In this document: positions 3,233-48,828 of the stretch, one piece after another
Layout: each line of letters begins with the position of its first letter
Position numbering within the stretch: position 1 is the first letter of the stretch
Source of the DNA: a virus
Reading direction: 5' to 3' (one strand)
Virus record (IMG/VR): IMGVR_UViG_3300025418_000011
DNA length: 64,000 bases
The notes under the pieces: generated by a model
What the model was told of the DNA's origin: nothing
Databases searched by the model: none
The model's input: only the letters and a program-made list of their open reading frames with translations
Position numbers and translations under genes: made by a program

Positions 3233-3920
3233 CGAAGATAATTTAGTTTGCCCCCCATTGGTAGGCTACACCTCTCCTTTTTTGAGAGAAATGCCTCAAC
3301 CGTACACTAATAAAAATTTAGTTTTAAATCCGTGGACGGTGCAGAATATTTGTTATGAAATGGCAGCTAATTACATGCTCTCTAATACCCCACAAAGTCA
3401 GGGGTTTGTATTTTCTCAAAAATTTGATAGAGACCCTAAAAAATCAGAAATATTTTTAGATATTGCATACAATTATAGAGATGACGTGGTACAAAAAAGA
3501 CCAGCTGTTTTTATAAGTAGAGGGGACGCAAGATACGATCATCCCACATTTAATCAGCAAATAGGCGGAAATTCAAAAGAGTCACAAAAAGAAAAATTAG
3601 CTATATTGCAAATGCCTGTACAAGTAACAGTGGTGGCCACTAATATAGGTTTTGCAGAGCAGTTCGCCCAGTATTTATCTAGGGTTTATTTAGATCATGC
3701 AGAAGAAATAAGGAGAGATTTCTTTTTAAGAAAATTTAGAATCGACTCTATGTCTAGCCCTTCTTTGTACTTAGAATCTAAAGAACACTATGCCGTAACA
3801 TTAAATTTATTCACGGCGTTCGATATGGGCTTTACAATTACGGGAGATCATTTAAAATTGAAAACAGTGAGCTTTACCGTGTTTACAAATTGTGCAGAAT
3901 CTCCACTTCTAAATCAATAA
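3225..3920 (+). CDS. Putative tail terminator/completion protein
   Basis: Last gene before the sheath; KRPAVFISRG motif as in tail-completion proteins. ATG at 3225 preferred over TTG at 3216. Confidence 0.5.
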   Translation: MSNEDNLVCPPLVGYTSPFLREMPQPYTNKNLVLNPWTVQNICYEMAANYMLSNTPQSQGFVFSQKFDRDPKKSEIFLDIAYNYRDDVVQKRPAVFISRGDARYDHPTFNQQIGGNSKESQKEKLAILQMPVQVTVVATNIGFAEQFAQYLSRVYLDHAEEIRRDFFLRKFRIDSMSSPSLYLESKEHYAVTLNLFTAFDMGFTITGDHLKLKTVSFTVFTNCAESPLLNQ

Positions 3921-27024: not shown

Positions 27025-30000
27025 ATGCCCGCGTTAGAATATTTAAGTTCAAATAGCCTGATCAGCTATCCTTTTAAAGATAGTGTTGCCCCCAATCAGT
27101 CTTTAGATATTCCTAAAGGGGCTTTTTTAGACGCGCTGTTTGTAACTAACGATAAAAATATAAAAAGAGTATATATCTCTAGTATCTCTAACATTGATGG
27201 AGATATAAATATAGCCTTATCAGAAGTTAATAATGGTGATATAGGCTCTTTAAGTTTTCCTTTAAGTTCTGCGATTAGTCATTTAGCAAATACGCAAACA
27301 AGCTTTTTTAGCTATTCTGGTGATGGCTGGGTGATCAAATTAATATTTGGCGATGAGATAAATTTTTTATCTAGCTTTTCCGGTACAGTAGAATATACAG
27401 CAGATCAAACAGAATTTTTATCTTCCTTGATAGTGTGGTATCCCAGAAAAGTAACTTCGCTTAGCTTTGATACATATGCCCATGACGGATACACCGCCAG
27501 CCATATATTACAAAACATAAAAACTTACGGGGCTGGAGAAGCTGTCATTTTAGACAATGGAACAAATAATGAATTTACCACTGATAGCACACATCAATTA
27601 TATATAGATGTAGCTAAAGGATTAGGTACGGGATTATGGAACCCCTGCCCTGACGGAGACATAGTAGACATATATACAGTTAATAACAGCTCCCCTAATT
27701 CTTCCGGGGCTTTGTTTATAGCTCCATCCGACTGCTATTCGTTAGACCTTTTGAGTGCCAACACCCTTAATGAGATCACATCAGGAGAGCTAAAAACAAA
27801 GACTGATTATTCAAATTTCTCCACACCTATCCCTGCTAGAAATGGTGTAGCAGCACACACCAATACCTTCAATGCCATATCCTCTGATATGGGAGGGCAC
27901 GGACTTGTATTTAACAATCACTGCAGTCCCAAATGCTCTCCTGAAAATATAAGTGGTTTTGCAAATTATCTCAATAGATCCACAGATGCCTTAGCAGAAC
28001 TTTACAAGGTAGTTAATAATCCCCAACAGACTTATGGAATAGGAAAAATAAATGGATCTGCCTTCGCGGAAAATAATTCTACTGGATTAATAAATAGCGC
28101 ACATTTTGTAGTAACCAGTTTTTGCGCGTATAGAAATGGCAAACCTACACCAGTTGGACCTACGTGTTCAGGAGGGTTTAAAAAGTATTTCCATGAGGGA
28201 AGAGAATTAACAATAACCTCTGGGGCCATTAATTATGTTTTTCAAATAAAAGAAGTTATTTCCACCCATGAAGTTATACTTGGGGTTACCACGCAATCAA
28301 ATATAGCTTTTAATGATATATGCGCAGCCCTATCTGGAAACTTAAATAACTTTATCGTTAACGACTACGGTATAAAAAACGCACTGAATGACGCAATTAC
28401 TAGAAGTAACGCCGCCGCCGCTAATAAAAATCAGCCATACGCAACTTTAAACTACGGCACACTAGAAGCCTATAATGCTGACAAGCAGTATGGTACATTC
28501 ATAACTTCGGTAATTGTTATATACAATCCGTCACCAGCAGCTATTTCATATTCTGTATCCGCATTCACCTCAGACCAAGCCACACTCGTTCCTTCTTCTG
28601 TAAAGATAAAAAATAGTATAGGCGATATTAGCTATGGGGCAAGTGTAGGAACAATCGCCTGCAAGGATTACAATATATTTGAATCCATATATTTCATTCC
28701 TTGCTCACAGGATATAGATCATTTGAATACAGGGAAAGTTACATTTGAAATAACAAACACATCTACTCCAAGTAACACACCTATAAATTACTATTCAAAT
28801 GGCGTTCTTATTGATGCGGTTCAAACGCCAATGACTATACCAGAGCCAGGAGCAACCATAACGGCAGCATATTGTGTTTCTGTCAATAATACTCAAGATG
28901 TAATTTCTGTGAACTACGGTGTACCGTTTAGCTACCCTATAAACATGCCGGAGGCTACAGAATTTACAGTTACAGGTACTCCACCAAGCTGGATAACAAT
29001 AGATACATCCTCAAATTCTCCTAGAATTTATTCTTCAAATCCGAACGGAAATACTTCAGAAGTATATTCTTTTACAGTTTTTGGAAAATCCGGATCACTT
29101 TATTACTTCCTTCAGTTAACCATAGACTATTTTGCTCCTCCGGTAATTAATTATCCAACACAAAACGAGGTTATAAATATTTATCCTCCTGACGGAGGCC
29201 CTCAGGTTTTAACCACTAGAACTTTTACAAAGAGTGCCCCCCTCATTCCCATAGCTGCATCGAATTATCCTACCAGTTATAGTATAACTTTAGACAATAA
29301 TTTAAGTGGTGTAAGTATAGGGCCTACAGGTACAAACAATCTTCCTCCAGGATTATCCGTGGGGGGCAACGGGCTGATAGGTAAGCTCAAGATGCCTAGC
29401 AATACCGTATACCCTGCTTTTTATCCTTTGACTTTGGTAGCCCACAATTCCGCCGGCAGCTCTTCTCCTGTACATGTATTATTAGAGATAAACGAGACTG
29501 GCATAGCTACATCGTATGCAAAACAGGGAGAACAGTTTAATTACAGTATAATCGTTGGCCCTGAAGTAATATCGCAAACAGTAGAACAAATTTTACCAGA
29601 CTGGTTACTTTTTGATCCTACCCTCAATCACTCTTCTGCGGGAGCTGTACCTAATTTTTATGGTACGAATTATGACACCACCTCAACGGAAATAAATATT
29701 GTTGTTAAGCAACAGCTTTATGGTGGAAGTTACAGGCTTGTGTCATATACGATACCTTATATCGTTACACCTATAATAAATTACCCCACTAATTCCACTG
29801 TTATTAATCTATATCCGCCGGACTTTAAAAACCCGATAGGTAGCAATACACAATTTACTTCAGTAAATCCACTATTTACAGTTTCTGCGTTAGGGGCAAC
29901 TTCATTTAATGACAATAACGGAACACTTCCCCTAGGGTTAAGCATAGATAACAATGGAAATATTACTGGGCAGATTTCAGATGATGCAAGTCTAGGTCTC

Positions 30001-33000
30001 CATGTAGTTACAATAAACGCAGTTAATGCTGTAGGTACTACGTCAGTTACTTTTAATATCAACCTATCTCAAGAAATATCTGAAATCATTGCGGATTATG
30101 GAACAGGATTTTGCTACACTTTTAGTGATTTAAGCTCCTTAGGTGCTAGTTTAAATGTGTCTTTCTCCATATTAAATTTACCTTCATTTTTAAATATTTC
30201 TAGTCAGGCAAATAGCTCTTGCCACATCTATTCTTCAGGAATTCTTAATCAGACTAATGAAATTCAACAATATATCACATTATCCATAAATAATGCCGGT
30301 TTAATAACCAATAGATTTTTTAATTTTATATATTCTCCGTCACTACAAATAACTTATCCAGCTCAAGATCAATTATTTTATATAGTCTATTCTGGTGGCT
30401 ATAGCACGATAACTTTTAATGCTGACGCACCACTATTACAAATACTCACAGCTAGACCTATAAGCTTTTATTTAGCCTCTGGATTACCTAGGGGCTTGAG
30501 TATAACACAAGACGGAAAAGTTATAGGTGCAGCTAACGATGTTGAGGGTACGTATAATGTGCAGGTTATCGCAGGTACTTCCTCAGGAGCTAGATATATA
30601 TCTTCGTTTAAAATATATATTTCTTCTTCTCCGTTGAATGGTGGTGTGTTTTTAAATACCCCCTACTGTTATAAGATATCAGGATTAGGACAAGCCGACA
30701 GTTATGGTTATACTGGCCCATTACCTCCTGGACTTCATTTTACTGGGGCTACAGGAGCAACCTGCAATATTTATGGTACCGTTAGTGGATTAACCCATGC
30801 GGCAAATTACCCATTAACTTTGTTTGCAAATAAAGGAAGCACACAAATGCCCCTTTCTTTAAACTTAAATTATTTACCTAATTCACCCACACCCCAAATA
30901 ACTACACCATTAAGCCAAAATATTTACTATATTAATCCTCCAGACTACAACAATAGAGAATACACCACAGACTCCCCATTGTTTAGTGTTTATGCTACTC
31001 AAAATCCGATACTATTTTCTGCTGTAGGGTTACCTCCTTCTTTAAGTATAGTTCCAGAGTCGGGACAAATTGTGGGAGGACCGGTTAGCCAAACAGGAAC
31101 ATACAATGTGACCATTTCGGTAGAATCTGAATATGGCTACTATGGTACAGGTACTTGCTCAATAGTGGTTTCTGATACTGCAGATCAATCTATTGTGATG
31201 CTTGAGAATCATACAGTCTGTAAAAAAATAACCTCCGCAGATAACGCCATATTCTACAATATTAGCGGTACATGGCCCGACGGTGTTTCTTACAATGGTT
31301 TTCCTGGATTTAACTGCAATTTCACAGGCACTCCCGCAAGCACTAATTCTTCAGGTGTATTTTCTGTTGTGATTGAAAATCAATATTTAGGAGGCGCTTC
31401 TAATAATCAATACGATATTCAATATTGGGGACTGCCCAGCATAACAGGAATTTCAACAAATCAAACATACGAATCTTATACAGGAGCCACAGGGAATACG
31501 GGACCATCTTATAATTTCCTACCTTCTGTTTATCTGGGGCCGGGAGAGTATACTGATGATAATCCTTTGTTAAGTTTATCTGTAACAAACGATCCAACAA
31601 GTATTGAGATAACGAGCATTACACCCAGACACTTTACTAGTCTGCACTTTAATCCCAACGGAAATTTAGTGGGCTATCCTTCGTACGATGATATAAATTT
31701 ACATTACACCATATCCGCGAGAGTTTCGAACCCTGCAGGTAGCTCTAATATATTTACTTTCGTATTATCTTTTAGTGCCGTACATGCGACGATAGATTGG
31801 CCCACACCAGACACAATGGTTTATGGTCAGCGACTTAATGAGTTTCAGTTAAATGCGACCACCCAAGCTTCTGGGAATATAACATATTCTCCCCCGGCGG
31901 GATACCTACCTCCAATAGGTGTTGACACACTAACCGCCTATTACAATCCTACAAGTTTAGATTATCTACCCACACAAAAAACAAATCAAGTTACTGTATT
32001 ATCAAATTTGATATATGGGTTATTTCCAGACGTAACTGTTGATTTTTACCCCGCGTCAAATATAAATCCACCCATATACAATTTTTATCCTAGCTTCGTT
32101 TTATATAAGCAATTTTCAGACCTTAGCCCGTTAGCTTTAGTATCCTCCGCTAATCCAACCACAAAATTTGCTATCGCTGGCTTTACAGCAGGCACAGGCC
32201 CAACAGGAGCCTCTCAATCCAACTTAGGGTATTTCGGAGTTACTTCAAACACAACAATACAAGTAGGCACAGGGACAAGAACATTTACTGTTAATACTAT
32301 AGGATCTTTTGCGGCTGGGGATAGTGTCATGGTTACAAACACAGGAGGAATAAACCTCAGCTATATGATAGGAACAATATCTGCTATTTATAGCGGAAAC
32401 CGTATGACGATATCAGTTAGCAGTGTTGGGGGTAATGGTGGAACATTTTCTAGCTGGGAAATATCTTTATATTCCACAACATTTCCAGGTCCTACAGGCT
32501 CATCAGGCTCATCAGGCCCTGCATGGCCGGATTTACCAATCACACTAACTCCTCCATATTACCCTGGGCTTCCCCCACTACTAACAATAGATAACAGTGG
32601 AGCCTTAATTGGAACAGTTTTACCTAATATGCTAAACAAGAGCTATGGGTTGTCTATAACTGCTGTGGATTCTTTAGGAAACCAATCTCCCCCATACAAT
32701 TGCATACTGGCATTTGAACCAAGAAAGTCACATGTATTTTGGGACACCCCAGATCCTATAATTTATGGTACCCCGTTAACAGACCAGCAATTAAATGCAT
32801 CGTTTGATATATACACCGAGGGTGGAGTATTACTTTATAATTATCAATTAGGAGATGTATTGAACGTAGGAACAAACATTCTAACCGCGGAATACGTATC
32901 GTCAGATATAAATGTAGCAGGCTCCACAAAATCTGTATCTCTTGTTATTACGCCTAACCTCATAACAGGGTTATCTTCAGACCAAACTTTTGAGTCTAGT

Positions 33001-35361
33001 ACAGGAGCTACTGGAGGTTCAGGTCCTTCATATAACATATTACCTTCTGTTTATTTAAACTCGTCATATACAGAAGATAACCCCTTATTTACTGTAAATA
33101 CTTTAATTTCGCTTGCGGATTATCACAACTTTGGTGGTTATATTTTTACTGCCACAGGACTACCAAATTCTTTAACAATAACTAATACTGGAAAGATTGT
33201 TGGTAGCTATCCGCAGATTTCAGAAATAAACCAAACATACAACGTTACTATAAATTTAGTTAATACTGTTGTTTATTATCCACAATCCGGTGCTCATTAT
33301 AACGATCCCCCTCCATTCAATTTTACGCTATCTATACAACCAATACCCACCAATATTACATGGCCTGCACTAGATCCTGTGGTTTATGGTACACCTATAA
33401 CCGAAGTGCAATTAAACGCAACAGCTGACGTGGCGGGATCTTTCACATATACCCCGGATTACGGCACAGTATTCAACGTAGGCAATAACACCATAACAGC
33501 AGTATTTACCCCAGACAGTGAAGACTATGGTTCAGCTACAGTTACAAACAATTTAACTGTATTGATTAATAAAATCACTTCATTTACCCCAGCAAGCTTT
33601 TTAAATTCATATTATTCTGCAGCCACAGGACCCTCCGGGCCTGTATATAGTCCTAATCCTTCTGAATACTTAAACAATGGACCTTACACAGGAGGCAACC
33701 CGTTGTTTTCTTTTGGTGCTGCTTCTACTGTATATACATACAGCGCAACAGGACTACCTTCTTCTTTAACTGTGGGAGGACTAGGAAATATCATAGGTAC
33801 ACCAAGTACGCAAGATTTGAATAAGGTATATTATATATCTCTATACGCTCAAGGTAATGATAATTACCAAAATAATCGCCCAAGGTCATTTTATTTGAAG
33901 TCTCCTCCTTATAATTTTGTTTTAGATTTAACCCCGAAAAATCACCCAGTATTAACTTGGTCTTCTCCGAATCCAATAACTTATGGTACTCCCTTGAGTA
34001 CAGACCAATTAAATGCCTCTTCAAACGTAGACGGAACTTTTACATATTCTCCAGCCTCAGGGACAGTATTAAATCATATCCATAACACATTGAATACTGT
34101 ATTTACCCCTACGTCTGTAGACTATTACACAGCCGAGGCATCAGTAAATATAAATGTAAACCCAGCAGGGGGCCCGATAGCAATAACAGGAATTTCTACA
34201 ACTCAAGCTATATATCAATCACATACCGGTTCAACAGGCTCAACAGGTACATATTATAATTTCTTGCCTTCTGTTTATCTGGCTGCGGGGCCATACACAG
34301 ACAATAATCCGCTACTTACAGTAAACACGGATGTCTTGGCTTCCGGTTTCATCGCTCAAGGTTTACCAAATACCCTATCTATAAACACCAACGGAAATAT
34401 TATAGGTACCCCTGTAGCTAGTCAGTTAAACGCGATTTATAATGTCACTGTATATGCTAATAATAATGGGACATTATCAAGCGCATTCCATTTTGTACTG
34501 AGTATTCAGAAAGGCATACCACAACTTAATTGGGATAATCCTGCAGATATAGTTTATAAAACACAGTTAATTCCTGGAGCCCAGTTGAATGCCACAACTG
34601 ACGTTTTGGGTAAATACGTATATGATCCCGTCCCAGGAACAATTTTAATGGTTGGTACAAATATTCCGCTACACGTCACTTTCACGCCAAACTCAAGTGA
34701 TTTTATACCCGTCACGAAAACCGTGCATATAAATGTAGTGCCAGCAACAACAAACTTAGTAACCATAACAGGGGTAGCAGTAAATATTCCAGTCCTTAGC
34801 CAAACAAGTCAGGTTAGTTATGTAAAACCTCCGGGCCTAAATTATTCTTTCCCTGTATATGTGAATGTATACACTATTATGCCTTCTGTTTATTTAAATT
34901 CAGGACCATACACAGACGATAATCCATTAATTTCAATAACCACAGATAATCCTCCATTTGGATTTCAGGCAATAGGGTTGCCTGAAGGATTATCGATAAG
35001 TGCAAATGGAAACATAGTTGGCAACCCAAGCAGTAATGATATAGATAGACTTTTCTCGATATCTATATCTCCCGATAATTTGGTATACAGCGCACAGGTA
35101 ATATATATTACGCTAGGTATACCCAAACAAGATCCGGTAATTACTTGGCCACAAATAACTCACGTAGGTGTTCCCTGGTTTACGGGGGCTTATGGAGCCA
35201 CTGCTTCTGTTCCTGGTACATTCATTTATGCCCCAGATTATGCGGAGTATGATTACGGAGGTAGCTATACTTGGTCAGCTACTTTCTATCCTAGCAACAG
35301 CACTGACTATAATATTATCCCAGCTACCACCACACTTCAGTTAATTGGTCGCAATTATTAA
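27025..35361 (+). CDS. Giant 2778-aa tail fibre/adhesin with tandem Ig-like (He_PIG-like and YG..QLNA) domains; paralog 2
   Basis: N-terminal LEYLSSNSLISYPF; many LPxGLSI..NG.I.G...G.Y.VT..A.N repeats; six TWP.P....YG.P....QLNA domains. Confidence 0.78.
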   Translation: MPALEYLSSNSLISYPFKDSVAPNQSLDIPKGAFLDALFVTNDKNIKRVYISSISNIDGDINIALSEVNNGDIGSLSFPLSSAISHLANTQTSFFSYSGDGWVIKLIFGDEINFLSSFSGTVEYTADQTEFLSSLIVWYPRKVTSLSFDTYAHDGYTASHILQNIKTYGAGEAVILDNGTNNEFTTDSTHQLYIDVAKGLGTGLWNPCPDGDIVDIYTVNNSSPNSSGALFIAPSDCYSLDLLSANTLNEITSGELKTKTDYSNFSTPIPARNGVAAHTNTFNAISSDMGGHGLVFNNHCSPKCSPENISGFANYLNRSTDALAELYKVVNNPQQTYGIGKINGSAFAENNSTGLINSAHFVVTSFCAYRNGKPTPVGPTCSGGFKKYFHEGRELTITSGAINYVFQIKEVISTHEVILGVTTQSNIAFNDICAALSGNLNNFIVNDYGIKNALNDAITRSNAAAANKNQPYATLNYGTLEAYNADKQYGTFITSVIVIYNPSPAAISYSVSAFTSDQATLVPSSVKIKNSIGDISYGASVGTIACKDYNIFESIYFIPCSQDIDHLNTGKVTFEITNTSTPSNTPINYYSNGVLIDAVQTPMTIPEPGATITAAYCVSVNNTQDVISVNYGVPFSYPINMPEATEFTVTGTPPSWITIDTSSNSPRIYSSNPNGNTSEVYSFTVFGKSGSLYYFLQLTIDYFAPPVINYPTQNEVINIYPPDGGPQVLTTRTFTKSAPLIPIAASNYPTSYSITLDNNLSGVSIGPTGTNNLPPGLSVGGNGLIGKLKMPSNTVYPAFYPLTLVAHNSAGSSSPVHVLLEINETGIATSYAKQGEQFNYSIIVGPEVISQTVEQILPDWLLFDPTLNHSSAGAVPNFYGTNYDTTSTEINIVVKQQLYGGSYRLVSYTIPYIVTPIINYPTNSTVINLYPPDFKNPIGSNTQFTSVNPLFTVSALGATSFNDNNGTLPLGLSIDNNGNITGQISDDASLGLHVVTINAVNAVGTTSVTFNINLSQEISEIIADYGTGFCYTFSDLSSLGASLNVSFSILNLPSFLNISSQANSSCHIYSSGILNQTNEIQQYITLSINNAGLITNRFFNFIYSPSLQITYPAQDQLFYIVYSGGYSTITFNADAPLLQILTARPISFYLASGLPRGLSITQDGKVIGAANDVEGTYNVQVIAGTSSGARYISSFKIYISSSPLNGGVFLNTPYCYKISGLGQADSYGYTGPLPPGLHFTGATGATCNIYGTVSGLTHAANYPLTLFANKGSTQMPLSLNLNYLPNSPTPQITTPLSQNIYYINPPDYNNREYTTDSPLFSVYATQNPILFSAVGLPPSLSIVPESGQIVGGPVSQTGTYNVTISVESEYGYYGTGTCSIVVSDTADQSIVMLENHTVCKKITSADNAIFYNISGTWPDGVSYNGFPGFNCNFTGTPASTNSSGVFSVVIENQYLGGASNNQYDIQYWGLPSITGISTNQTYESYTGATGNTGPSYNFLPSVYLGPGEYTDDNPLLSLSVTNDPTSIEITSITPRHFTSLHFNPNGNLVGYPSYDDINLHYTISARVSNPAGSSNIFTFVLSFSAVHATIDWPTPDTMVYGQRLNEFQLNATTQASGNITYSPPAGYLPPIGVDTLTAYYNPTSLDYLPTQKTNQVTVLSNLIYGLFPDVTVDFYPASNINPPIYNFYPSFVLYKQFSDLSPLALVSSANPTTKFAIAGFTAGTGPTGASQSNLGYFGVTSNTTIQVGTGTRTFTVNTIGSFAAGDSVMVTNTGGINLSYMIGTISAIYSGNRMTISVSSVGGNGGTFSSWEISLYSTTFPGPTGSSGSSGPAWPDLPITLTPPYYPGLPPLLTIDNSGALIGTVLPNMLNKSYGLSITAVDSLGNQSPPYNCILAFEPRKSHVFWDTPDPIIYGTPLTDQQLNASFDIYTEGGVLLYNYQLGDVLNVGTNILTAEYVSSDINVAGSTKSVSLVITPNLITGLSSDQTFESSTGATGGSGPSYNILPSVYLNSSYTEDNPLFTVNTLISLADYHNFGGYIFTATGLPNSLTITNTGKIVGSYPQISEINQTYNVTINLVNTVVYYPQSGAHYNDPPPFNFTLSIQPIPTNITWPALDPVVYGTPITEVQLNATADVAGSFTYTPDYGTVFNVGNNTITAVFTPDSEDYGSATVTNNLTVLINKITSFTPASFLNSYYSAATGPSGPVYSPNPSEYLNNGPYTGGNPLFSFGAASTVYTYSATGLPSSLTVGGLGNIIGTPSTQDLNKVYYISLYAQGNDNYQNNRPRSFYLKSPPYNFVLDLTPKNHPVLTWSSPNPITYGTPLSTDQLNASSNVDGTFTYSPASGTVLNHIHNTLNTVFTPTSVDYYTAEASVNINVNPAGGPIAITGISTTQAIYQSHTGSTGSTGTYYNFLPSVYLAAGPYTDNNPLLTVNTDVLASGFIAQGLPNTLSINTNGNIIGTPVASQLNAIYNVTVYANNNGTLSSAFHFVLSIQKGIPQLNWDNPADIVYKTQLIPGAQLNATTDVLGKYVYDPVPGTILMVGTNIPLHVTFTPNSSDFIPVTKTVHINVVPATTNLVTITGVAVNIPVLSQTSQVSYVKPPGLNYSFPVYVNVYTIMPSVYLNSGPYTDDNPLISITTDNPPFGFQAIGLPEGLSISANGNIVGNPSSNDIDRLFSISISPDNLVYSAQVIYITLGIPKQDPVITWPQITHVGVPWFTGAYGATASVPGTFIYAPDYAEYDYGGSYTWSATFYPSNSTDYNIIPATTTLQLIGRNY
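31441..35340 (+). repeat. Six tandem two-domain protein repeats inside the giant fibre
   Basis: Recurrent ITG.S..Q...S.TG.TG..GP.YN.LPSVYL..GPYTDDNPL followed by W..P..I.YG..L...QLNA. Confidence 0.8.
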
Positions 35362-35404: not shown

Positions 35405-36805
35405 ATGGCTATCAATACTCTTAATTTTTTAAACAAAAACCAATTTAGGAGATACCCTCTTAAATCAGGATCTTCATTGACTTCTATAGACGGTAAAAAA
35501 ATAACAAATGAATTATTTGTAGGGGCGAGTATAACAACCACAATCGATCGTAAAAATATATTTATAAAGCAAGTATATGTGAATGGCTCGAATATAAGGG
35601 TTACTTTAGCTTGCCAGCTATCTAATTCTTTTTTTGAGACATTAGGTGTGTTTTACGGAACAATAACTAGTGACTTCACAAGCATTCCTTTAACAGAAAC
35701 AATGAGATTCACTAGCGGCAGCTTAATAATAGGCACAGCTGACGCAGTTGCAAGCATGGCCGGTACTTATACTTTTGATACAGAAGCCCTGCAATTAGAA
35801 GAATCTACTATTTTTTATTACACTCCGCCAGGTGTTACTAGTGTACAAAACAATGGAGCACAATTAAGGGGAAATGTTAATTTTGGAGTGCTTACCAATA
35901 TAATTAAATCCAGACCAAATAATAATCAAATTAATTTTGGTGTGATAGACACCGTGAGTGTAACAAGCCTGGCCGACAAATCTTCTATTTTTAATAATTG
36001 TAATACTCCTGTAATAAGACATATAGATGGGGCCACACCATTCTACCAAGCTTCAAATTCCGTAGACTCCTCAGGTAACAGTAATTATGTTCCGGAGTTG
36101 CAGGGAAATCTATTTATGGTAGGTATTTCACCAATCACATTTAAAAACGAACAAAATTTAGGAGCTTCAGGAACTTTAGAATATTTAGGAGGCTTAAAAA
36201 CTGAAACATTCTCTGCCTCTACAGGTGCACCAATTACTTTGAATACTCTATGTAACGCTAGAAATTCAGTGTTGCCTCCAACCGCGCCAATTTATATAAA
36301 CTCAGGGCACCTACAGGATCCTACTACCCCAACAGGAACCACAGGTGCCCTTGGCTTGGCTAGTTATTATACAAAATCAAATTACAAACCTGCAAATTTT
36401 TATTCTGCAGTAGATCCAGAATTTGTATGGTGGCCGCAATTTTTTACATACAGTAGCATAACTCCAAATAGCCCGATTGTTGCAAACCAAGGAACAACAG
36501 GAAGTGTTGGATATGCGGCTATCTCCGGTGTTCCATCACCCAAGTATACTCTGACTGTTGTATATGTAAACAAAGGTACAGCAGATTTAACTATATCGTT
36601 ATTTAAAAATGGAGTTAGCCTAAATGGCTTTTACGGAGTAGTTGTAAAAGCCAATAGCTCTGTAACTGTTAGAAGCACCAGCGATAGTAACTATACGTAT
36701 CATGATACATTTATAGGCATTGCTAACGGAGATCATTTTACAGTATCATTTGATTCTGTTTCTGGTGGAGTGTCTACACTGCAGCCATATATATACTATA
36801 GATAA
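35405..36805 (+). CDS. Fibre-region paralog 3
   Basis: N-terminal LNFLNKNQFRRYPL; C-terminal jelly-roll-like beta domain. Confidence 0.6.
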   Translation: MAINTLNFLNKNQFRRYPLKSGSSLTSIDGKKITNELFVGASITTTIDRKNIFIKQVYVNGSNIRVTLACQLSNSFFETLGVFYGTITSDFTSIPLTETMRFTSGSLIIGTADAVASMAGTYTFDTEALQLEESTIFYYTPPGVTSVQNNGAQLRGNVNFGVLTNIIKSRPNNNQINFGVIDTVSVTSLADKSSIFNNCNTPVIRHIDGATPFYQASNSVDSSGNSNYVPELQGNLFMVGISPITFKNEQNLGASGTLEYLGGLKTETFSASTGAPITLNTLCNARNSVLPPTAPIYINSGHLQDPTTPTGTTGALGLASYYTKSNYKPANFYSAVDPEFVWWPQFFTYSSITPNSPIVANQGTTGSVGYAAISGVPSPKYTLTVVYVNKGTADLTISLFKNGVSLNGFYGVVVKANSSVTVRSTSDSNYTYHDTFIGIANGDHFTVSFDSVSGGVSTLQPYIYYR

Positions 36806-36808
36806 AAT

Positions 36809-37597
36809 ATGTCTGAATATATTGCATTAGGTTGGCAAAATGAGAATGGATTAACAAATTATCCATTAACTTTGCCGTTTGAAATAAACGATTTGATTGT
36901 AGATGCTTCGTTTATACAATTTGATAATTATGTACCCTCTTTTGTAAACGTACTTATTGGTGCGGACTACATGACATTTAATATCTTATTTGACTTAGGT
37001 GAAGTTACCGCCACATACAACCATTCAGATTATTCAACCGGCGTTAAAAATTTAAGATTTTATGACCATGGTGGCGATAGATATATAGGTTGTTTAACTA
37101 TAGGCGTTGGTGCATTGAAAGCATGGAACAGTTATGTAGGTGAAAACTTAATAGCTGGAGCTTTAACAGGAGGACCTATACCATTCGTACCATCCACAGT
37201 AAAAAGCATCCCTCTCAATGACGCGGTGTATACTTTAGATAGCTCTTACGGGTTTATTTCATTAGGAGCAAATCAAGACATAGCGGACACTTTTACAGAT
37301 ATTGGTGGAATAATTTATCAAACCTCCGCAGGGGGTAACACAATATTTTATAATGCCGTTAATTCCCCTCCATCTATCACGTTTAATGCTGTGGGAAATA
37401 GTGTTCCTCCGGCTACTAACAATATATATCCATTAAAACAAATAAACTTAACAAAACCTAAAAATAATAATATTACCATAGGCGGAAATGATATTATTAA
37501 GTTTAATTCTATAAATAATCAAAATCTTGAAATATATGTCGCCGGTCAAGGCGGAGCTAGTTCTTCTAACTTAGTATTGACCACATTATCTATGTAA
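36809..37597 (+). CDS. Fibre-region paralog 4
   Basis: N-terminal LGWQNENGLTNYPL...LIVDASF. Confidence 0.6.
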   Translation: MSEYIALGWQNENGLTNYPLTLPFEINDLIVDASFIQFDNYVPSFVNVLIGADYMTFNILFDLGEVTATYNHSDYSTGVKNLRFYDHGGDRYIGCLTIGVGALKAWNSYVGENLIAGALTGGPIPFVPSTVKSIPLNDAVYTLDSSYGFISLGANQDIADTFTDIGGIIYQTSAGGNTIFYNAVNSPPSITFNAVGNSVPPATNNIYPLKQINLTKPKNNNITIGGNDIIKFNSINNQNLEIYVAGQGGASSSNLVLTTLSM

Positions 37598-37598
37598 T

Positions 37599-38501
37599 AT
37601 GGAAGCACTAGAATGGTTAAATGAAAACTCCCTAAGGAATTATCCATTACTTGACGACGTTCCGGCTAATGGTTTACCAGAGAGCGCTATATTAGATTTG
37701 CAGCTGATTTTAAATTCTCCTTCAAACGTATCTGGAGCTAAATTAATAGATATCACAATAAGCAGTGTGTCTAAAGATATTTCAATTAATTTTACAGAAA
37801 ATTCATTTTACTATAGTTTAATCGATAACAACTTAAACACGTTTTCAGACATACAGTTTCCTTTGTATATCAGAAATTCCTCAGGCAGTCTTTTAGTTTT
37901 AGGAGATGGGCTTTTAAAAATACCTGTAAATACTCCTACTACATACAACCTACCTGTTGAGCCCGCCACAGTATTTGAATTTGGAGGTGCTTGGTTGGGT
38001 GTTAGAAGTATTAACCAAACTCCCAACTATGCCACAAACTCGGGAGATATTTCTCCGGCGTTACCCCTGACTTCAATAAGTGGAATAGCTACTGCAGGTG
38101 ACGTGGAGTTTATTCCTGGCTATAACTATCAAATAAATTTTGATAATAGTTTGATAAACATGACTGCGGCATATGCGTTAGGCTTACAAATGGACTGCAC
38201 AACAAGATTTTTACCTCCCCAATATCATGATTGCCCAGATATTGTTTCTTATATTAATGGAATTCCGCCAGACAGCGACGGTATTTTCAAGTTTGTGCAA
38301 GGCAATAACATTTATTTAGTAGACGGGAATTCTGTACAACAGCCTATACAAGATACAAATATATCTCCTCCGCTAGGTAGCTATACAGATATTTCTGGAA
38401 ATCAGCAAACAGGACTTAACAACAACACAGTATTTGTAGGGTTGACATTCTTAGAATCTGATTTATGCTCTCCTGTACAGCTATTGCCTACAAATAATTA
38501 A
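37599..38501 (+). CDS. Fibre-region paralog 5
   Basis: N-terminal LEWLNENSLRNYPL...AILDLQL; VSYINGIPPDSDG. Confidence 0.6.
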   Translation: MEALEWLNENSLRNYPLLDDVPANGLPESAILDLQLILNSPSNVSGAKLIDITISSVSKDISINFTENSFYYSLIDNNLNTFSDIQFPLYIRNSSGSLLVLGDGLLKIPVNTPTTYNLPVEPATVFEFGGAWLGVRSINQTPNYATNSGDISPALPLTSISGIATAGDVEFIPGYNYQINFDNSLINMTAAYALGLQMDCTTRFLPPQYHDCPDIVSYINGIPPDSDGIFKFVQGNNIYLVDGNSVQQPIQDTNISPPLGSYTDISGNQQTGLNNNTVFVGLTFLESDLCSPVQLLPTNN

Positions 38502-38511
38502 AAATACATAT

Positions 38512-38829
38512 ATGAATACACCTAAGAAAAAAATGGTATTTACAAGTGTTAATCAAATATTAAATTTGATCAAATCCACTCCAGCTCTTCAGCAACTACC
38601 GAGGTTTGCCACATTCAAGAACGCTGAGTTGAGTACTGCCCCTGTTAAAAGCTGCAATTGCTCTAAAAATATCATAACCCCGGATATCAATAAACAGATG
38701 CTTGAGAATACATTATCTTCTCTCACAGATGCCGATTTCTTGACGATCAAAGGAGTGCTTGGACTAGATGAGCTTTGCTATTACAAGCGGATTGCAGGAA
38801 ACGGTAGATTAGAGATGATTTGCGTTTAA
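38512..38829 (+). CDS. Hypothetical Cys-containing protein
   Basis: 105 aa, CNC motif. Confidence 0.55.
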   Translation: MNTPKKKMVFTSVNQILNLIKSTPALQQLPRFATFKNAELSTAPVKSCNCSKNIITPDINKQMLENTLSSLTDADFLTIKGVLGLDELCYYKRIAGNGRLEMICV

Positions 38830-38832
38830 TTA

Positions 38833-39543
38833 GTGGGTATAATAAGCAGTATGAACCCAGAAAATCAGCATATTGCATATTATATAAATTCATCGGCAGG
38901 TAAAAGCATACCATTACCCCTGGAGAGCATAGATGGATCTATAGATTGCAAAAAGTCTATAATCAGGTGCAGGAAAAATTCACCGCTGCAGGAGTATGTT
39001 TCACCCCTAGGTTATAGGGGTTTTCCTGGTGTACCTTATGAGCAAGGAGTTCCAAACCCTGATACATATTATCAGGGAGAGGATATCGTATTAGATAGTA
39101 TGCTTGTTTATCTTGGGGAAATGGTAGACCACAATAAATACACAATTTCTGTAGTAGTTAAGCCTGATCCTCACTCTTTAACTCCCACATGGGTAGGTAG
39201 TATTGATAATGGAATTTATTCTACAGATAGAGTGGGGTTCTACCAGATCTGGATACCGTCAGCAACCACACAGAATCTTTTTGCTGGTTCGTACTATTTA
39301 GACGTTATTCTTAAAGAACACGTCGGTAAAGGTGCTGGCGTTAAAGACCGCACCATGTTCTTGTTAACATATATTTTTAACGTAGAGTATAGCGCAGGTA
39401 GCAAACATCCAGAAAACTCGTCTAACTCTGGCGGTTTGCCTAATAGAGGAGAGCTAGAGAACACCTGGCCACCTGCGGCTGATATAATCGGGACATCAAC
39501 AAACCACAACACATACACAGCTCCTAGTCAGTACCCCCTTTAA
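38833..39543 (+). CDS. Hypothetical protein with an Ig/BppU-like beta-sandwich
   Basis: YYQGEDIVL...GFYQIWIPSATTQNLFAGSYYLDV pattern; GTG start. Confidence 0.4.
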   Translation: MGIISSMNPENQHIAYYINSSAGKSIPLPLESIDGSIDCKKSIIRCRKNSPLQEYVSPLGYRGFPGVPYEQGVPNPDTYYQGEDIVLDSMLVYLGEMVDHNKYTISVVVKPDPHSLTPTWVGSIDNGIYSTDRVGFYQIWIPSATTQNLFAGSYYLDVILKEHVGKGAGVKDRTMFLLTYIFNVEYSAGSKHPENSSNSGGLPNRGELENTWPPAADIIGTSTNHNTYTAPSQYPL

Positions 39544-39602
39544 TTACTCCGCTTATTTTTTGGTATAACTTAATAAGTGGCAATGTTTCGCCATTTATTT
39601 AA

Positions 39603-39857
39603 ATGCTTGTTGCAAAATTCTTAGAAAAATTAGATTGGGTTTCAGACTCTAGGTTGTATAGTTTGTCGTCCCCCTTAAAAGGACACAATTACATAATTGT
39701 GTCCTCCTCAGAAGGACAGATTCCAGACACAGCAATCTATGGCGCAGATAAGTACGGCAATCCTCTAGACTTTGAGGACCTGCCAGGAAGTTACACAGGA
39801 ACAAGTCATATGGAGGCGTTAAGAAGAGCGGGATATATACTTTTTATAAATGAATAA
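39603..39857 (+). CDS. Small conserved-looking phage protein
   Basis: 84 aa; IYGADKYG...EDLPGS...HMEALRRAGY. Confidence 0.6.
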   Translation: MLVAKFLEKLDWVSDSRLYSLSSPLKGHNYIIVSSSEGQIPDTAIYGADKYGNPLDFEDLPGSYTGTSHMEALRRAGYILFINE

Positions 39858-40041
39858 AAAAGTAATAACAAACCCCGAAGCAAGTGCATTGGGGTTCAAA
39901 GAAAAACCATACAGAAAGTGGCCAGAAGACAAAAATCTAGTAGTCTTAACCATAAACGGTTGGGATGACTTATTTTTTGATCGTGAAGGCACCCTTGTGT
40001 ATCTAACCACACTAAATAAACATGAGTCACGAAATAGTTGA
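39850..40041 (+). CDS. Hypothetical protein
   Basis: 63 aa, overlapping operon arrangement. Confidence 0.5.
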   Translation: MNKKVITNPEASALGFKEKPYRKWPEDKNLVVLTINGWDDLFFDREGTLVYLTTLNKHESRNS

Positions 40042-40480: not shown

Positions 40481-41013
40481 ATAGATTCGGATCTGTGTGT
40501 CCGCTAATTAGCTAAAGGTCCACGGCTGATATTGTGTGTACAATGGCGCTCTGCTCGGCCGAGCACCGCATAGAGACACATAGCAAACGGGCACACAGAT
40601 CCATCTATTTTTGTAATGCTACTTGCGATTAGTCTGGACTATAACCAGAGTCGTAAACCGTCTCAAGTCGGGAAGAGGTGGAATCATGGCCGCCTGAAAA
40701 GCAGAGAGCAAAAAATGGCGCAGCAAGGAATAAACTGACGAGTTTATTGAAAGGGTTTCCAACTTATTGGTGGAAACTGGTGTGGCACAACCCCCACACT
40801 AAATGACAATCTCACGGATACTGCAACCACCGTGAACAAATCATTCGCCTCACCACGAGGTTTGCAGACATCGTGGTAGGAACGCGCCTAAACCTTTTAA
40901 AATAATTCTGTGAGTAGAGTATGGGTAATTCCCATAACACGCTCTGTAAAGATAAACAACCTAATGCTGGGTGTTATTTTTACAGATCACGGTGATGATC
41001 ACACAGAGTTATT
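40481..41013 (+). ncRNA. Candidate large structured ncRNA A (about 530 nt, family unknown)
   Basis: No ORF of 60 aa or more; about 10 stems, three long ones containing G-U pairs that only work on the + strand. Confidence 0.6.
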
Positions 41014-41053: not shown

Positions 41054-41827
41054 GTGAAAAACGTACGCAGGATAGATTGGTCAGCACGTAAAGAAAAACG
41101 AGACAACGACATCTACCTAAACAAAGAGCTAAAGAAGCTGTTGCGTTATAGAGAAGATATCAACATACTCTCTCTGCCTGGTGAAAAATGGCTATGGGAG
41201 CGGCAGTTAATTCAAAATTTCCCTGAAAATAAGTTCAATATTGTTGGTGTTGAATCTGATCCTTATGTGAATGAATCTTCAAGAAATTTTCTAAAGCTCA
41301 ATCACAAGAATAAAAGAAACCAGATTGATCTACTAGACCAAAAAACATCATGGGAAGATGTAGTCACCAGGAAATTTAATTCCAGCTTGTTTGATAGCTC
41401 AACAGCTGAATTTGATATAATCTACGGTGATTTCATGGGTACCTTTAACAGAAATATAATAGAGTATATCTCACACATGCTAGAGGATAAAAAAATGATA
41501 AAGCCCTTGGGTAATATTATTTTTACATTCCTGCTTGGACGTGGATTGAGGGATATCAGAGAAGAAACCCTAGAGATAGGCAGAGCATCAAAATATTCAG
41601 ATTTACTTTATTTTGATGATGACATGCTGTGGAACAGATACAGCAGTAATACCAAATCTGATGAAGTTCATCCTTATGCTATCGGCATTATGGAAACTAT
41701 CTTACAGCTTGGTAAGAAATTCGGAAAAGTTCTACTCCCCTCAAAACCACATATATATTACAGTCCGGGAAGAGATGAAAACCATCTTGTTCCAGAGGGC
41801 AGCTTTTGCTTTACACTGATAAAGTAA
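41054..41827 (+). CDS. Class I SAM-dependent methyltransferase-like protein
   Basis: INILSLPG (motif I-like), IVGVESD (motif II), FDIIYGDFMG (motif IV); GTG start. Confidence 0.6.
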   Translation: MKNVRRIDWSARKEKRDNDIYLNKELKKLLRYREDINILSLPGEKWLWERQLIQNFPENKFNIVGVESDPYVNESSRNFLKLNHKNKRNQIDLLDQKTSWEDVVTRKFNSSLFDSSTAEFDIIYGDFMGTFNRNIIEYISHMLEDKKMIKPLGNIIFTFLLGRGLRDIREETLEIGRASKYSDLLYFDDDMLWNRYSSNTKSDEVHPYAIGIMETILQLGKKFGKVLLPSKPHIYYSPGRDENHLVPEGSFCFTLIK

Positions 41828-41850: not shown

Positions 41851-42285
41851 GGGGGCGTAATTGGAAATCGACTCCAGGAGTTGATATCAGCCTACATGCA
41901 GAGGATCTCAGTTGGCCTCTATAATCATCTGGGAAAAAAATAAAAGCAAACTCTAACGAGATGCTTGCTCCTAGCCTCGCTGAGGCGGATGCCATTCTTG
42001 CAAAGTATGGCTACGCTGACAGCGAGCTTCTCGCTGCCTAACCGCAGCGGCTTGAAGCCGCTAGTAGTAAAACGCTCTCTGGACGCCCGATGCCGGAGAG
42101 ATACAAAAGGGTACCTCAATTATCTTGTGAGGGTATAATTTAGATACGACTCAATTCGCGTTAAGTTGAAGATCCATCTGTATCCGCTCAGCGTACTGGT
42201 ACAGATGAAATAGGCTGAGCTAAGCATGTAAACGGTTGTTAGATATTTCTGGAACACACGGGTTCGAATCCCGTCGCCTCCACCA
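41851..42285 (+). ncRNA. ssrA: tmRNA (one-piece, 435 nt)
   Basis: GGGGGCG/CGCCTCC-ACCA acceptor with G3-U; T-arm CGGG TTCGAAT CCCG; helix 2 (TCCAGGA/TTCTGGA, CATGC/GCATG); pk1 (GAGG/CCTC plus TCTCAG/CTGGGA); tag ending LLAA-stop. Confidence 0.96.
41946..42041 (+). other. tmRNA tag reading frame ANSNEMLAPSLAEADAILAKYGYADSELLAA*
   Basis: GCA resume codon after pk1 and ATAAAA; 31 sense codons then TAA. Confidence 0.88.
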
Positions 42286-42288
42286 ATC

Positions 42289-42867
42289 TACTGATGAAAA
42301 TCAGTACTCCTCCTGGGGATAATCGTATCCCTTGCTCATAGTCTAACGGTTACAAAGTGACTATCTGTGACTACTCAGACAAACGAGACCGCGGTTCCCA
42401 GTACGTGTAATCCCTCTATCATTAACAGGCATGTTGGATAGAAACGCAATTAGTCATTGCGGGGGAAAGAAGCTAACCGCGGGTTGAGGAAAAATTTCCC
42501 CCCAACAATAGATATAAAAACCACTGTGAGAAGCAGGGCATTGCGCTTTGTGTATATGTGGAAATCCCGAAGATAACATATTAATCCTCTCAGGGGCTAC
42601 AGGTGATGCTCTCTGAGGAAAAAGGAAGTTAACCATCTGGGAGCTCTATTGTCTGGGGACTTTTGTTTTGGTAATGATCTTTTATCGGTTAGATCATGTG
42701 TGTTGGAACCGTCTGTGGCCGCGAGATGTATATCTTTCCCGCCCAAAAAAATAACAGATTGAGCATACAACAGAGTCCAAATCTCAAAACATGCTCGGTA
42801 ATAATAAACCAACAACCAATATTTTCCTGGTTTGCCACACATACACAGGAGCACTGGTCCGGCAGTG
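42289..42867 (+). ncRNA. Candidate large structured ncRNA B (about 580 nt, family unknown)
   Basis: Starts 3 nt after the tmRNA CCA; more than 10 hairpins, including GAAA and GGCA GNRA loops on +; no + strand ORF. Confidence 0.55.
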
Positions 42868-42929
42868 ACTAACACAATCCGGAAATTTTTTATTTGATTA
42901 TTGCCCTCTATGCGGATAATTATTTATTT

Positions 42930-43012
42930 GAGCCCAGGACAACCAAAAACCCTCTGGTATTAGGCGGGAAATCTGATGGAAAGCAGAAATCTATAAGCCC
43001 TGTCCTGGGCTC
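42930..43012. repeat. Perfect 12-bp inverted repeat enclosing 59 nt
   Basis: GAGCCCAGGACA (42930) / TGTCCTGGGCTC (43001), followed by a T-rich tract. Confidence 0.75.
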
Positions 43013-43040
43013 TTATTTTTTAACTATTCAAAAAACCCAT

Positions 43041-43069
43041 TTGACACACCAAAAAACTAGGTGTAGGGT
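43041..43069 (+). promoter_or_regulatory. Sigma70-type promoter, near-leaderless
   Basis: TTGACA-17 nt-TAGGGT; ATG 8 nt downstream. Confidence 0.7.
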
Positions 43070-43550: not shown

Positions 43551-43691
43551 TGACCTGACTGTATGGAAGAGAACATACATTTGTTACGCAGTAAGTTGTC
43601 TGCAGCCACCCTGTCCCTCTGGAAATTCCGGGGGAGAGCTTCGAAGCCCAGGGACACCAAAACAGTGAAGGGTTAGCGTCCTTCCAGGTCA
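43551..43691 (+). ncRNA. Candidate multibranch structured RNA C (about 140 nt)
   Basis: Closing stem TGACCTG/CAGGTCA with four internal arms; intergenic and GC-richer than its flanks. Confidence 0.5.
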
Positions 43692-43706: not shown

Positions 43707-43907
43707 ATGATATTCTCAAATAAACTACTTAAAACATGCAAATCGTACGACAAGTCCAAGTTCTTGTCGCGTAGACCCAAGGGTATGAAAGAAGCCGACT
43801 GGAAGGAGTATGTTGCGGACTTCAAGCTAAACAAGCTTATTGTTCTAGGCAATGCTCCAAAAGCCCCCGCAAGAAAAGAATCCAGACCTCAGGAGGATAA
43901 GGAATAA
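43707..43907 (+). CDS. Small basic hypothetical protein
   Basis: 66 aa, K-rich, G/C-ending codons. Confidence 0.55.
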   Translation: MIFSNKLLKTCKSYDKSKFLSRRPKGMKEADWKEYVADFKLNKLIVLGNAPKAPARKESRPQEDKE

Positions 43908-43908
43908 T

Positions 43909-44532
43909 ATGGGCATGTTCGATACTGTATTTGTAGAGAAAGCTCTGCCCCTCTCTCCTGAGGTTAAAAAAGCGTTCAAGGGTAAAGACTGGAAAAAGAT
44001 CGACTTTCAAACGAAAGATTTAGATCTAGCCATGGCTTATTATTATCTTAAAGCTAACGGTAACTTGTACTTAGAGAAAATAGAGGGCAGTTACGAACCC
44101 CTCGCTGAAGAAGAAATAAAGAAAAATAAGAAAAATAAATTCTATCTTAATTATAAGTTCATTGAAACAGGTCGTGAATTAGTTAAAACAAATATTTGCG
44201 GAACTGTACAAATATACGCTAGTGAGTACGATAACGCCGGTAACGAGTGGTGGGTTGAATTTGAGCTGGTTCTACACAATGGAAAGCTTAAAAAGGCCAA
44301 ACAAATCAAGGCTGAGCTTGTGCATACCGCTGAAGAAATAGAACAACAGCGGGTAGATTTCGAGCAGCGCCATGAAAAGGTATACAATCATCCCTGGAAT
44401 AAGACCAAGAGAGTACTAAATAAGATTACATTTAATTATTGGAACTCATCTTGGAGAGGGGTTGCCAGAGGAGTAAGATTCCTTGGTTCCAGACTGGACA
44501 ATCTTGGAATGTGGATATATAGATATATGTAA
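43909..44532 (+). CDS. Conserved phage hypothetical protein (MGMFD... family)
   Basis: MGMFDTV...DFQTKDLD...WWVEFEL; ATG at 43909 preferred over 43852. Confidence 0.65.
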   Translation: MGMFDTVFVEKALPLSPEVKKAFKGKDWKKIDFQTKDLDLAMAYYYLKANGNLYLEKIEGSYEPLAEEEIKKNKKNKFYLNYKFIETGRELVKTNICGTVQIYASEYDNAGNEWWVEFELVLHNGKLKKAKQIKAELVHTAEEIEQQRVDFEQRHEKVYNHPWNKTKRVLNKITFNYWNSSWRGVARGVRFLGSRLDNLGMWIYRYM

Positions 44533-47709: not shown

Positions 47710-48762
47710 ATGAGTTCATTCAACTTCGACCAGTCTACAGATTATTCAAATAAAGATCTTTATAAGCTCTTACGTGTTTCTGATTTGCCTGCATATGTGA
47801 AAACCGCATCTGTGGACGACTATGACACACTTCAAGGTCTTCCAAAAGAGGCGTTTGCAGATGAAACGAGAAGGATTTATCCCCTGAACACTCCTGCGCG
47901 TACTTTTGTAAGCAATGCATATTTTATTAGTAAGAAGGCCGATATACAGAAAATATACGGCGAAGGTTATACTAGTCAACTAGAAAACAAAATTAAAGAA
48001 GCCGCCGAAATCTTTGAGATTTCTGAGGATATCTCTAATTACTCTCAAGAGTTTGTTAAGCAGGCCAACTCTGATTACCCCGAACAATACCTCGGCCAAT
48101 TTGAATTGGCTGACGGCAATGTTCTAAATCTTTATCCTGTTAAAACTGCCGCAGACCTGAGGGAAAATGTTGAGCATATTGTGGGACACATGCATCAATA
48201 TCCATTCGCATGGAGAACCAAGATGGCCGAACAGGCTATTAAGATCGCCAAGGATTTATCCGTGGACGACATTCCTGACCTTCTCTTGAAATATGCTGGT
48301 TATTTTTATCCTGACTTCGGCGGCTTAAAGACCGAGGTGTGGAGAAGAAGCACAAAGCTTAAGCAGGCAGAACATAAAGAAATGTATGAAAAGCTCGCAG
48401 AAGACGTAGAGAATATCTCTTCTGTGGAAGAGGTTATGAAGCTGGCTGAAACTCTTTTCCATGTGGAAAACATGGAAGGGTTATATGATAACGTCAAGAT
48501 TGCCCAGATTTTAAAAGATCCTGTGGACATGATATTCACCAAGAGCATAGATAAGGTCGCAGAAGATCTTAACTTTATAGAAGCTCACGGAGATAAGTAT
48601 TTAGTAGATGACTTGCAGAAAGTTGGTAAGGATAAGTATGAGGAAGCTTTTGGTTTTGATCTGGATCCTACGGACTCAGTGAAACTGGCTGAGGTTTTCC
48701 CCACCATGCCTAGGTCAGACATTAAGTTATTCGAAGAAATTTCGGGAGTTAGACCCGTATAA
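47710..48762 (+). CDS. Acidic hypothetical protein, possibly internal head protein
   Basis: 350 aa; AFADETRRIYPLNT motif; repeated KTAS/KQAN/KTAA/KQAE. Confidence 0.55.
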   Translation: MSSFNFDQSTDYSNKDLYKLLRVSDLPAYVKTASVDDYDTLQGLPKEAFADETRRIYPLNTPARTFVSNAYFISKKADIQKIYGEGYTSQLENKIKEAAEIFEISEDISNYSQEFVKQANSDYPEQYLGQFELADGNVLNLYPVKTAADLRENVEHIVGHMHQYPFAWRTKMAEQAIKIAKDLSVDDIPDLLLKYAGYFYPDFGGLKTEVWRRSTKLKQAEHKEMYEKLAEDVENISSVEEVMKLAETLFHVENMEGLYDNVKIAQILKDPVDMIFTKSIDKVAEDLNFIEAHGDKYLVDDLQKVGKDKYEEAFGFDLDPTDSVKLAEVFPTMPRSDIKLFEEISGVRPV

Positions 48763-48785: not shown

Positions 48786-48828
48786 ACCTCCCACGCCTCT
48801 CAACGATGCGCACCAAGGGAGGTTTTTT
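48786..48828 (+). terminator. Intrinsic terminator with long loop
   Basis: ACCTCCC/GGGAGGT followed by a T-tract. Confidence 0.6.

Follow-up and report, generated by a model that had tools for sequence, protein, structure and literature searches.

The tmRNA locus of a giant freshwater phage

The window analysed here, 64,000 nt of IMG/VR record IMGVR_UViG_3300025418_000011, comes from a 131.6-kb viral contig that CheckV rates as 67% complete, which puts the phage genome at about 200 kb; the phage is an uncultured giant phage from freshwater. Nearly all long ORFs of the window lie on the + strand, and so do all the RNA genes around the locus: a complete, standard one-piece tmRNA gene that specifies a 31-residue tag and encodes its own CCA end, and five tRNA genes downstream of it at 44.7-49.9 kb. 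The tmRNA gene starts 23 nt after the stop codon of a 257-aa ORF that had no Pfam or PHROG match; the AlphaFold model of this ORF adopts a class I SAM-methyltransferase fold, with the tRNA methyltransferase Trm1 as its top Foldseek match (E 1e-7).

The tract that follows the tmRNA, 42286-43021 (+), is non-coding, as judged by sequence comparison, and encodes conserved structured RNA. The earlier note on this DNA had described a structured non-coding block of about 580 nt right behind the tmRNA, ending at 42867. An ORF-poor, strongly pairing block does lie there, extending about 150 nt further; its real end is the first intrinsic terminator, with a T-run at 43013-43021. The features of the locus are as follows.

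41054-41827 (+): upstream ORF, 257 aa, class I SAM-methyltransferase fold (AlphaFold model, pLDDT 79)
41851-42285 (+): tmRNA gene (ARAGORN; Rfam RF00023, 98.9 bits, full length)
42289-42306 (+): hp0, a 7-bp hairpin with a GAAA loop, beginning 3 nt after the CCA; window's lineage only
42307-42492 (+): Y1, a self-closing domain of about 185 nt (RNAalifold, window with L059/L061)
42499-42817 (+): Y2, 319 nt and 15 helices, composed of sub-domains Y2a and Y2b
42499-42658 (+): Y2a, a domain of about 160 nt in which a 13-bp long-range helix closes off a multi-stem junction
42499-42512 with 42645-42658 (+): the 13-bp closing helix of Y2a, with compensatory changes
42670-42817 (+): Y2b, a domain about 150 nt long, with seven sequences aligned in A6 and A9
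42766-42772 with 42791-42797 (+): 7-bp hairpin of Y2b, with strong covariation
42818-42851 (+): variable linker, not conserved, which cannot be aligned in A6
42852-42883 (+): PK, an H-type pseudoknot with a covarying stem 2
42930-43021 (+): T, a branched intrinsic terminator (terminator scan, RNAalifold)
from 43078: DUF6378 gene, the next gene after the tract

Within Y1, three arms are enclosed by a CCUC/GAGG closing helix, and the domain includes a long-range CCGCGGU/ACCGCGG helix. The core of Y2b, about 55 nt at 42709-42765, is nearly invariant and consists of an irregular hairpin and an A-rich strand; a loop-to-downstream pairing of 42674-42679 with 42692-42697 is possible in the same sub-domain. 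Stem 1 of PK is an invariant CACUG/CAGUG helix, whose loop pairs with a segment 10-12 nt downstream over an A-rich linker. A U-rich stretch and a small hairpin separate PK from T, in which a 12-bp basal stem (42930-42941 with 43001-43012) carries two hairpins and is followed by the T-run; the inner 30 nt are invariant among the compared relatives. The terminator scan matched T at 42996-43011, followed by the T-rich tail, and found no terminator-like site between the tmRNA and 42996-43021. Promoter-like matches in the tract were no commoner than in shuffled sequences. Because no terminator-like site precedes 42996-43021 and promoter-like matches stay at shuffle frequency, co-transcription of the tract with the tmRNA, as the earlier note had proposed, is plausible from the sequence.

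Relatives carry the modules in a mosaic order

Relatives of the locus were collected in several ways. The 226-aa gene at 43852-44532, used as a query, led to L025 and L027, both with a tmRNA; a degenerate DNA pattern of the unusual tmRNA tag led to L059 and L060; a pattern of the most conserved core led to L061 and L062; and protein look-ups added L086, L087, L088, L089/L090 and L091. Applied to metagenome contigs, the Y2-core pattern gave three true homologues, all near-identical to L061, the other nine matches being due to chance, as were all three of its matches among 185,579 prokaryote genomes. A second core pattern brought nothing additional from IMG/VR, and an exact 27-mer spanning the tmRNA/hp0 junction found no homologue. 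Searches of cultured-phage DNA, and of IMG/VR with the 257-aa neighbour, likewise found none, and the DUF6378 neighbour retrieved only unrelated loci, all without a tmRNA. L086 is a 96% strain variant that begins at window position 42307. Window 42299-43057 is 72% identical to L059, L060, L061 and L087, and its second half 76% identical to L062/L080 and L089. A covariance model of Y2b (R1) scored 166-183 bits on all seven copies and found nothing else in 211 kb; neither the X blocks of L025, L088 and L091 nor any other sequence scanned held a distant copy. Each genome holds one Y copy. On these sequence searches the family is narrow: Y2 occurs in about five lineages and Y1 in two, to which the 96% strain variant is added.

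The order of modules after the tmRNA differs among these contigs.

Window, L086: hp0-Y1-Y2-PK-T
L059, L060, L061: M2-M3-Y1-Y2-PK-T
L087: as L059, plus a GT11-family gene (2952-3818) between Y2 and PK
L080 (= L062): M1-M2-M3-Y2-PK, without Y1; simple terminator
L089: M3-Y2-methyltransferase gene-PK (methyltransferase-fold gene at 448-1239), without Y1
L025, L088, L091: M1-M2-X-M3-PK, without Y
L027: about 260 nt from tmRNA to the next gene

PK is the sole part of the block common to the distant relatives L025, L088 and L091. The hairpin hp0, present in the 95% relatives L081/L082, is replaced elsewhere by 160-370 nt of other modules (M1, M2, M3). A scan for further covarying helices returned consensus helices only, none of which joins one module to another. 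Y2a and Y2b always occur together, whereas Y1, Y2 and PK do not; since these three are separable among relatives, they would be autonomous units rather than one obligate 700-nt molecule, although Y1, Y2, PK and T might act together in the window's own phage. The single chain of about 580 nt envisaged in the earlier note therefore gives way to a mosaic of self-closing modules with long-range helices, gained and lost independently, while its reading of the block as structured RNA stands.

Two independent assemblies (ENA, Logan) of a 95-96% relative, L081 and L082, end at window position 42325 and so contribute nothing on the block; a further contig from that ENA sample begins at 42307. This common break at the tmRNA/Y1 junction points to structural variants that co-exist in the population. 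The 257-aa methyltransferase-fold ORF is itself mobile within the RNA island, lying after PK in L025 and L091 and between Y2 and PK in L089. The tmRNA tag (window 41946-42041, compared with L025 and L061) has 31 residues with few changes and is of the ANSNE...LLAA type with an insert of about 20 residues; that so few changes have occurred across relatives shows that the long tag is under selection.

Compensatory changes define the structure and its strand

Folded as a single sequence, the tract does better than its shuffled versions whichever strand is taken, with z -2.7 for + and -2.3 for - (20 shuffled sequences per strand). Alone, this is weak, suggestive evidence; the comparative evidence is decisive. 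For Y2, RNAalifold on seven sequences gave 87 pairs, 26 of them compensatory (57 cells), with 97.7% of cells paired, values reached by none of 500 shuffles, while sliding the partners by 1-3 columns left 0-7 such pairs. The closing helix of Y2a shows compensatory changes in nine of its 13 pairs and exists in four different complementary versions, and the 7-bp hairpin of Y2b covaries at six of seven. In Y1, compared between the window and L059/L061, 13 of 55 pairs have changed on both sides and 95% of cells are paired (slid controls, 0-2); with Y2 sampled from about five distinct lineages and Y1 from two, the covariation counts stand below R-scape-grade statistics. RNAalifold found seven of 48 pairs in T to be compensatory, one of them in the basal stem (C-G to U-A in relatives), and stem 2 of PK occurs in three covarying versions across nine contigs (UCCGG:CCGGA, UCCAG:CUGGA and CCCAG:CUGGG). 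In a non-circular test, in which the window was folded alone and its pairs were scored in L061, 30 double changes kept pairing, against 8-13 for slid partners.

About half of the individual hairpins listed in the earlier note hold in this comparison. GGGATA/TATCCC, TCTATC/GATAGA, the AACA/TGTT hairpin and CGCAAT/ATTGCG are kept with compensatory changes, as is GAGCAT/ATGCTC, where six of seven pairs covary; of ATGATCT/AGATCAT a 3-bp core is kept, with one clear compensatory pair. CACTG/CAGTG, which is invariant, forms stem 1 of the pseudoknot, and TACTGAT-GAAA-ATCAGTA (42289-42306) exists in the window's own lineage only. Covarying alternatives take the place of the remainder, which are not conserved: ATAGTC/GACTAT, TCTG/CAGA, CTGGG/CCCAG, GGGGGAAA/TTTCCCCC, ATATGT/ACATAT and TCCTG/CAGGA.

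The proposal that the non-coding RNA lies on the + strand is borne out by the covariation together with the asymmetry of G-U pairs. The Y2 consensus has an energy of -80.0 kcal/mol on + against -67.7 on the complement, and contains 29 G-U cells against two A-C cells. Y2 of L086 differs from that of the window at eight positions; four of these lie in helices, and all four exchange G-U for Watson-Crick pairs, or the reverse, on +. Because both the G-U pairs and the changes between G-U and Watson-Crick fit +, the RNA is most simply read from that strand. Energy gives no strand discrimination for Y1 and T. The context agrees with +, where the neighbouring RNA genes all lie and where the stem at 42996-43011 is the sole terminator-like site. 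Y1 and Y2 diverge from L086 by 3.5% and 2.4%, less than the adjacent DUF6378 gene (6.3%), and this lower divergence indicates that the RNA is under purifying selection.

No protein-coding frame is conserved

Small protein genes on either strand are almost certainly not what the tract encodes. No ORF between 42286 and 43078 exceeds 92 codons. The candidates are two minus-strand ORFs, at 42454-42636 and 42597-42875, whose conservation as proteins the earlier note had named as evidence against its own proposal. In L061 the former does have a partner ORF in the same frame, its ATG conserved, yet protein identity between the two is only 40% where the DNA is 72% identical, and the ATG is ATT in L062; the latter has no counterpart ORF in L061. 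There was no Pfam or PHROG match, and neither minus-strand ORF is conserved as a protein. Substitutions relative to L061, L059 and L062 are spread evenly over the three codon positions, without codon periodicity, and indels are mostly of 1, 2 or 4 nt. Across all six frames, stop-free stretches of at least 25 codons reach a fragmentary translated identity of 40-59%, against 82% protein identity over the full length of the DUF6378 gene, the control, at 74% DNA identity. No single stop-codon reassignment opens the tract. With no conserved frame, no codon-position bias and no protein conservation above that of the DNA, we rejected a protein-coding gene.

The tract among known RNA families

We scanned four homologues (the window, L059, L061 and L062) with cmscan against all 4227 Rfam 15 models. 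Tract 42286-43021 had no match, whether the gathering score or a relaxed cut-off of E 10 was applied, and the homologous blocks in L059, L061 and L062 had none at E up to 5; the same scans found the tmRNA, the tRNAs, Pistol ribozymes in relatives, the group I intron of L026 and the abiF motif. The RNA thus appears to lie outside every Rfam 15 family. A literature search found no account of it, and the suggestion that it may be new stands. The proposed likeness to the MISL motif is unsupported: no Rfam 15 family of any name matched, MISL itself not having been confirmed among the models.

The closest known kinds are GOLLD and ROOL, which resemble the tract in size, complexity and genomic setting. 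Both are several hundred nt long, with many multi-stem junctions, occur in phage DNA beside tRNA-type genes and have no established function; ROOL is about 580 nt long, with six multi-stem junctions and three pseudoknots (PMC5737381, PMC12286853). Neither model matched in the tract (E up to 10) or in the three homologues (E up to 5), and beyond two small candidates no pseudoknot helices were supported. Unlike GOLLD and ROOL, the tract is a mosaic of separable modules and is confined to a handful of freshwater phage contigs.

Introns invite a second comparison, as the T-loop of tmRNA is a known position of group I introns (PMC11915505). In L059 (9356-10006, -), L060, L080, L087 and L088, an insert of about 650 nt splits the T-loop; it carries an opposite-strand ORF of 136 aa with a weak LAGLIDADG match (E 6e-4), and tmRNAs bearing it were not found by ARAGORN and scored 35 bits with the Rfam tmRNA model, below its gathering score. 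The tract is like such introns in being a structured RNA insertion at the 3' end of a tmRNA gene, but it lies after the CCA, interrupts no recognisable host RNA in the window and has no endonuclease ORF. Neither the group I model (RF00028) nor group II intron models matched it at E up to 10. RF00028 finds the L026 intron (85.5 bits) but fails on the L059 T-loop insert, and its lack of a match to Y is therefore not conclusive. A likeness of short Y1 words to Tetrahymena intron sequence was set aside and not used as evidence.

Smaller candidates were also set aside. In its 5-bp stem 1, 5-bp loop-derived stem 2 and A-rich linker, PK resembles compact H-type pseudoknots whose third loop is A-rich, such as the preQ1-I riboswitch and luteovirus frameshift knots. 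No preQ1-I model matched (E up to 10), stem 2 abuts stem 1, and PK differs from preQ1-I in having no second loop for the ligand-recognising base (C) and no consistent gene downstream. Like Pistol ribozymes, PK has a hairpin loop paired downstream as a pseudoknot; unlike them, it has a 10-nt linker and none of their further stems, and RF02679 matched PK in none of the homologues, whereas true Pistols score 60-61 bits. The hammerhead-like words of hp0, CUGAUGA and GAAA, overlap, with no stem II between them. A permuted two-piece tmRNA was excluded as well, the RF04321 match being a partial one of 20 bits to the T-arm and CCA (E 0.14; gathering score 47).

Probable origin and possible roles of the proposed trailer RNA

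We consider it probable that 42286-43021 is the 3' trailer of the tmRNA transcription unit and encodes, in tandem, the autonomous, stably folded non-coding RNA domains Y1, Y2, PK and T; most likely, these stable domains are released from the trailer of the tmRNA precursor. By the alignments, each domain is non-coding and self-closing, its helices held by compensatory evolution on the + strand, and in related freshwater phages with genomes of about 200 kb the domains have been rearranged, gained and lost as separate modules. The maturation of tRNA and tmRNA by RNase P and 3' endo- and exonucleases is standard; from this and from the genomic context, we infer that transcription would read through from the methyltransferase-fold gene and the tmRNA across the tract, and that the trailer would be cut off as host tRNA-type nucleases mature the 3' CCA end of the tmRNA. 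The trailer would then remain as one or several stable RNAs. More speculatively, its near-invariant unpaired nucleotides, chiefly those of the 55-nt Y2b core, may bind a protein or RNA partner during infection, which would make the trailer RNA a decoy or a scaffold, as is suspected for GOLLD and ROOL. A bolder version, in which Y2 founds a new class of large phage RNAs that function through a biochemical activity of their own (for example a ribozyme acting on tmRNA or tRNA precursors, or an RNA-only assembly of the GOLLD/ROOL type) and spreads as a cassette among giant freshwater phages, strikes us as quite unlikely.

Other readings were weighed against these separable trailer domains. That Y1, Y2, PK and T form one ornate RNA of about 700 nt, a ribozyme or a GOLLD/ROOL-like RNA-only assembly, is unlikely, even though the parts run contiguously on one strand from the tmRNA end to one terminator in the window, L059, L060 and L061, Y2a is never apart from Y2b, and the size, junctions, invariant core and tRNA-type neighbours recall GOLLD and ROOL (PMC5737381, PMC12286853): Y2 is kept without Y1 in L080 and L089, in L087 and L089 a protein gene comes between Y2 and PK, L025, L088 and L091 have PK but no Y, and no covarying helix links the modules. 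We regard as very unlikely a trailer that acts in cis on the phage tmRNA, regulating its maturation, its stability or its timing. The tract does begin 1-3 nt past the CCA with no terminator between, and RNA modules follow the tmRNA in every examined relative; against this, the CCA-adjacent sequence is wholly different among relatives (hp0, M1 or M2), the distance from Y to the CCA varies from 20 to 370 nt, in L027 the next gene comes after only about 260 nt, and a role tied to tmRNA maturation is argued against because L025, L088 and L091 lack Y despite closely related tmRNAs with the same tag type.

Very little credence goes to selfish or relic ribozyme modules, intron-like or homing, that settle at the ends of tRNA and tmRNA genes and keep their structure for their own propagation. 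Their appeal lies in a neighbourhood rich in such elements (the T-loop insert, the group I intron by tRNA-Met and the Pistol ribozymes of relatives), in the break of two independent assemblies at 42307-42325, in the blindness of the Rfam group I model to the T-loop insert, which keeps its silence on Y from being strong evidence, and in the comparison with L025, relative to which Y looks inserted between M3 and PK, with imprecise boundaries and with the window lacking M3 altogether. On the other side stand the lack of any Rfam intron or ribozyme match in four homologues, of a nuclease or reverse-transcriptase ORF in or beside Y, and of a host RNA in the window that needs splicing for its continuity, together with the single copy per genome. 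An element acting as DNA (a replication origin or R-loop primer region, for example, or a site for recombination or packaging) is highly improbable: cumulative GC skew does have a shallow minimum at about 36-40 kb, just 5' of the RNA island, but this lies upstream of the tract and after a 2778-aa ORF with strong negative skew (27025-35361), which the minimum at 36000-40000 may only reflect, and the tract has no iterons or repeats, ends in a terminator and shows a G-U asymmetry that favours RNA on the + strand.

Large, intricate RNAs of bacteria and phages are, to our knowledge, rare, and those that are understood are ribozymes, ribonucleoprotein scaffolds or RNA cages. The separable trailer domains proposed here would add an uncatalogued RNA family with unusually clear compensatory evolution and a long invariant core. 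Sister phages in which the modules are present, absent or separated by genes provide a natural experiment that shows which pieces to test alone. The 3' flank of the phage tmRNA gene is a hot spot that accumulates structured RNAs, introns and ribozymes, and this is relevant to the control that giant phages exert over translation and RNA processing.

Other RNA elements of the island

In L025 (2476-2543), L061 (2882-2950) and L060 (4882-4950), a Pistol ribozyme scoring 60-61 bits precedes the tmRNA by a few hundred nt; Rfam gave no Pistol match at the corresponding place in the window, about 40600-40790. In the more distant relative L026, a group I intron (4074-4306, Rfam 85.5 bits) lies immediately 5' of tRNA-Met. 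At 43551-43691 (+) the window has a multi-stem element of about 140 nt that had no Rfam match and is the best conserved non-coding piece of the RNA island: identity is 84-88% even in L025, L088 and L091, the distant relatives, and RNAalifold gives 44 pairs, seven of them compensatory. An abiF RNA motif (50 bits) is found at 48787-48823 (+), directly 3' of a 350-aa ORF (47710-48762), and the pairing of this motif with the same ORF partner recurs in L059 and L061.
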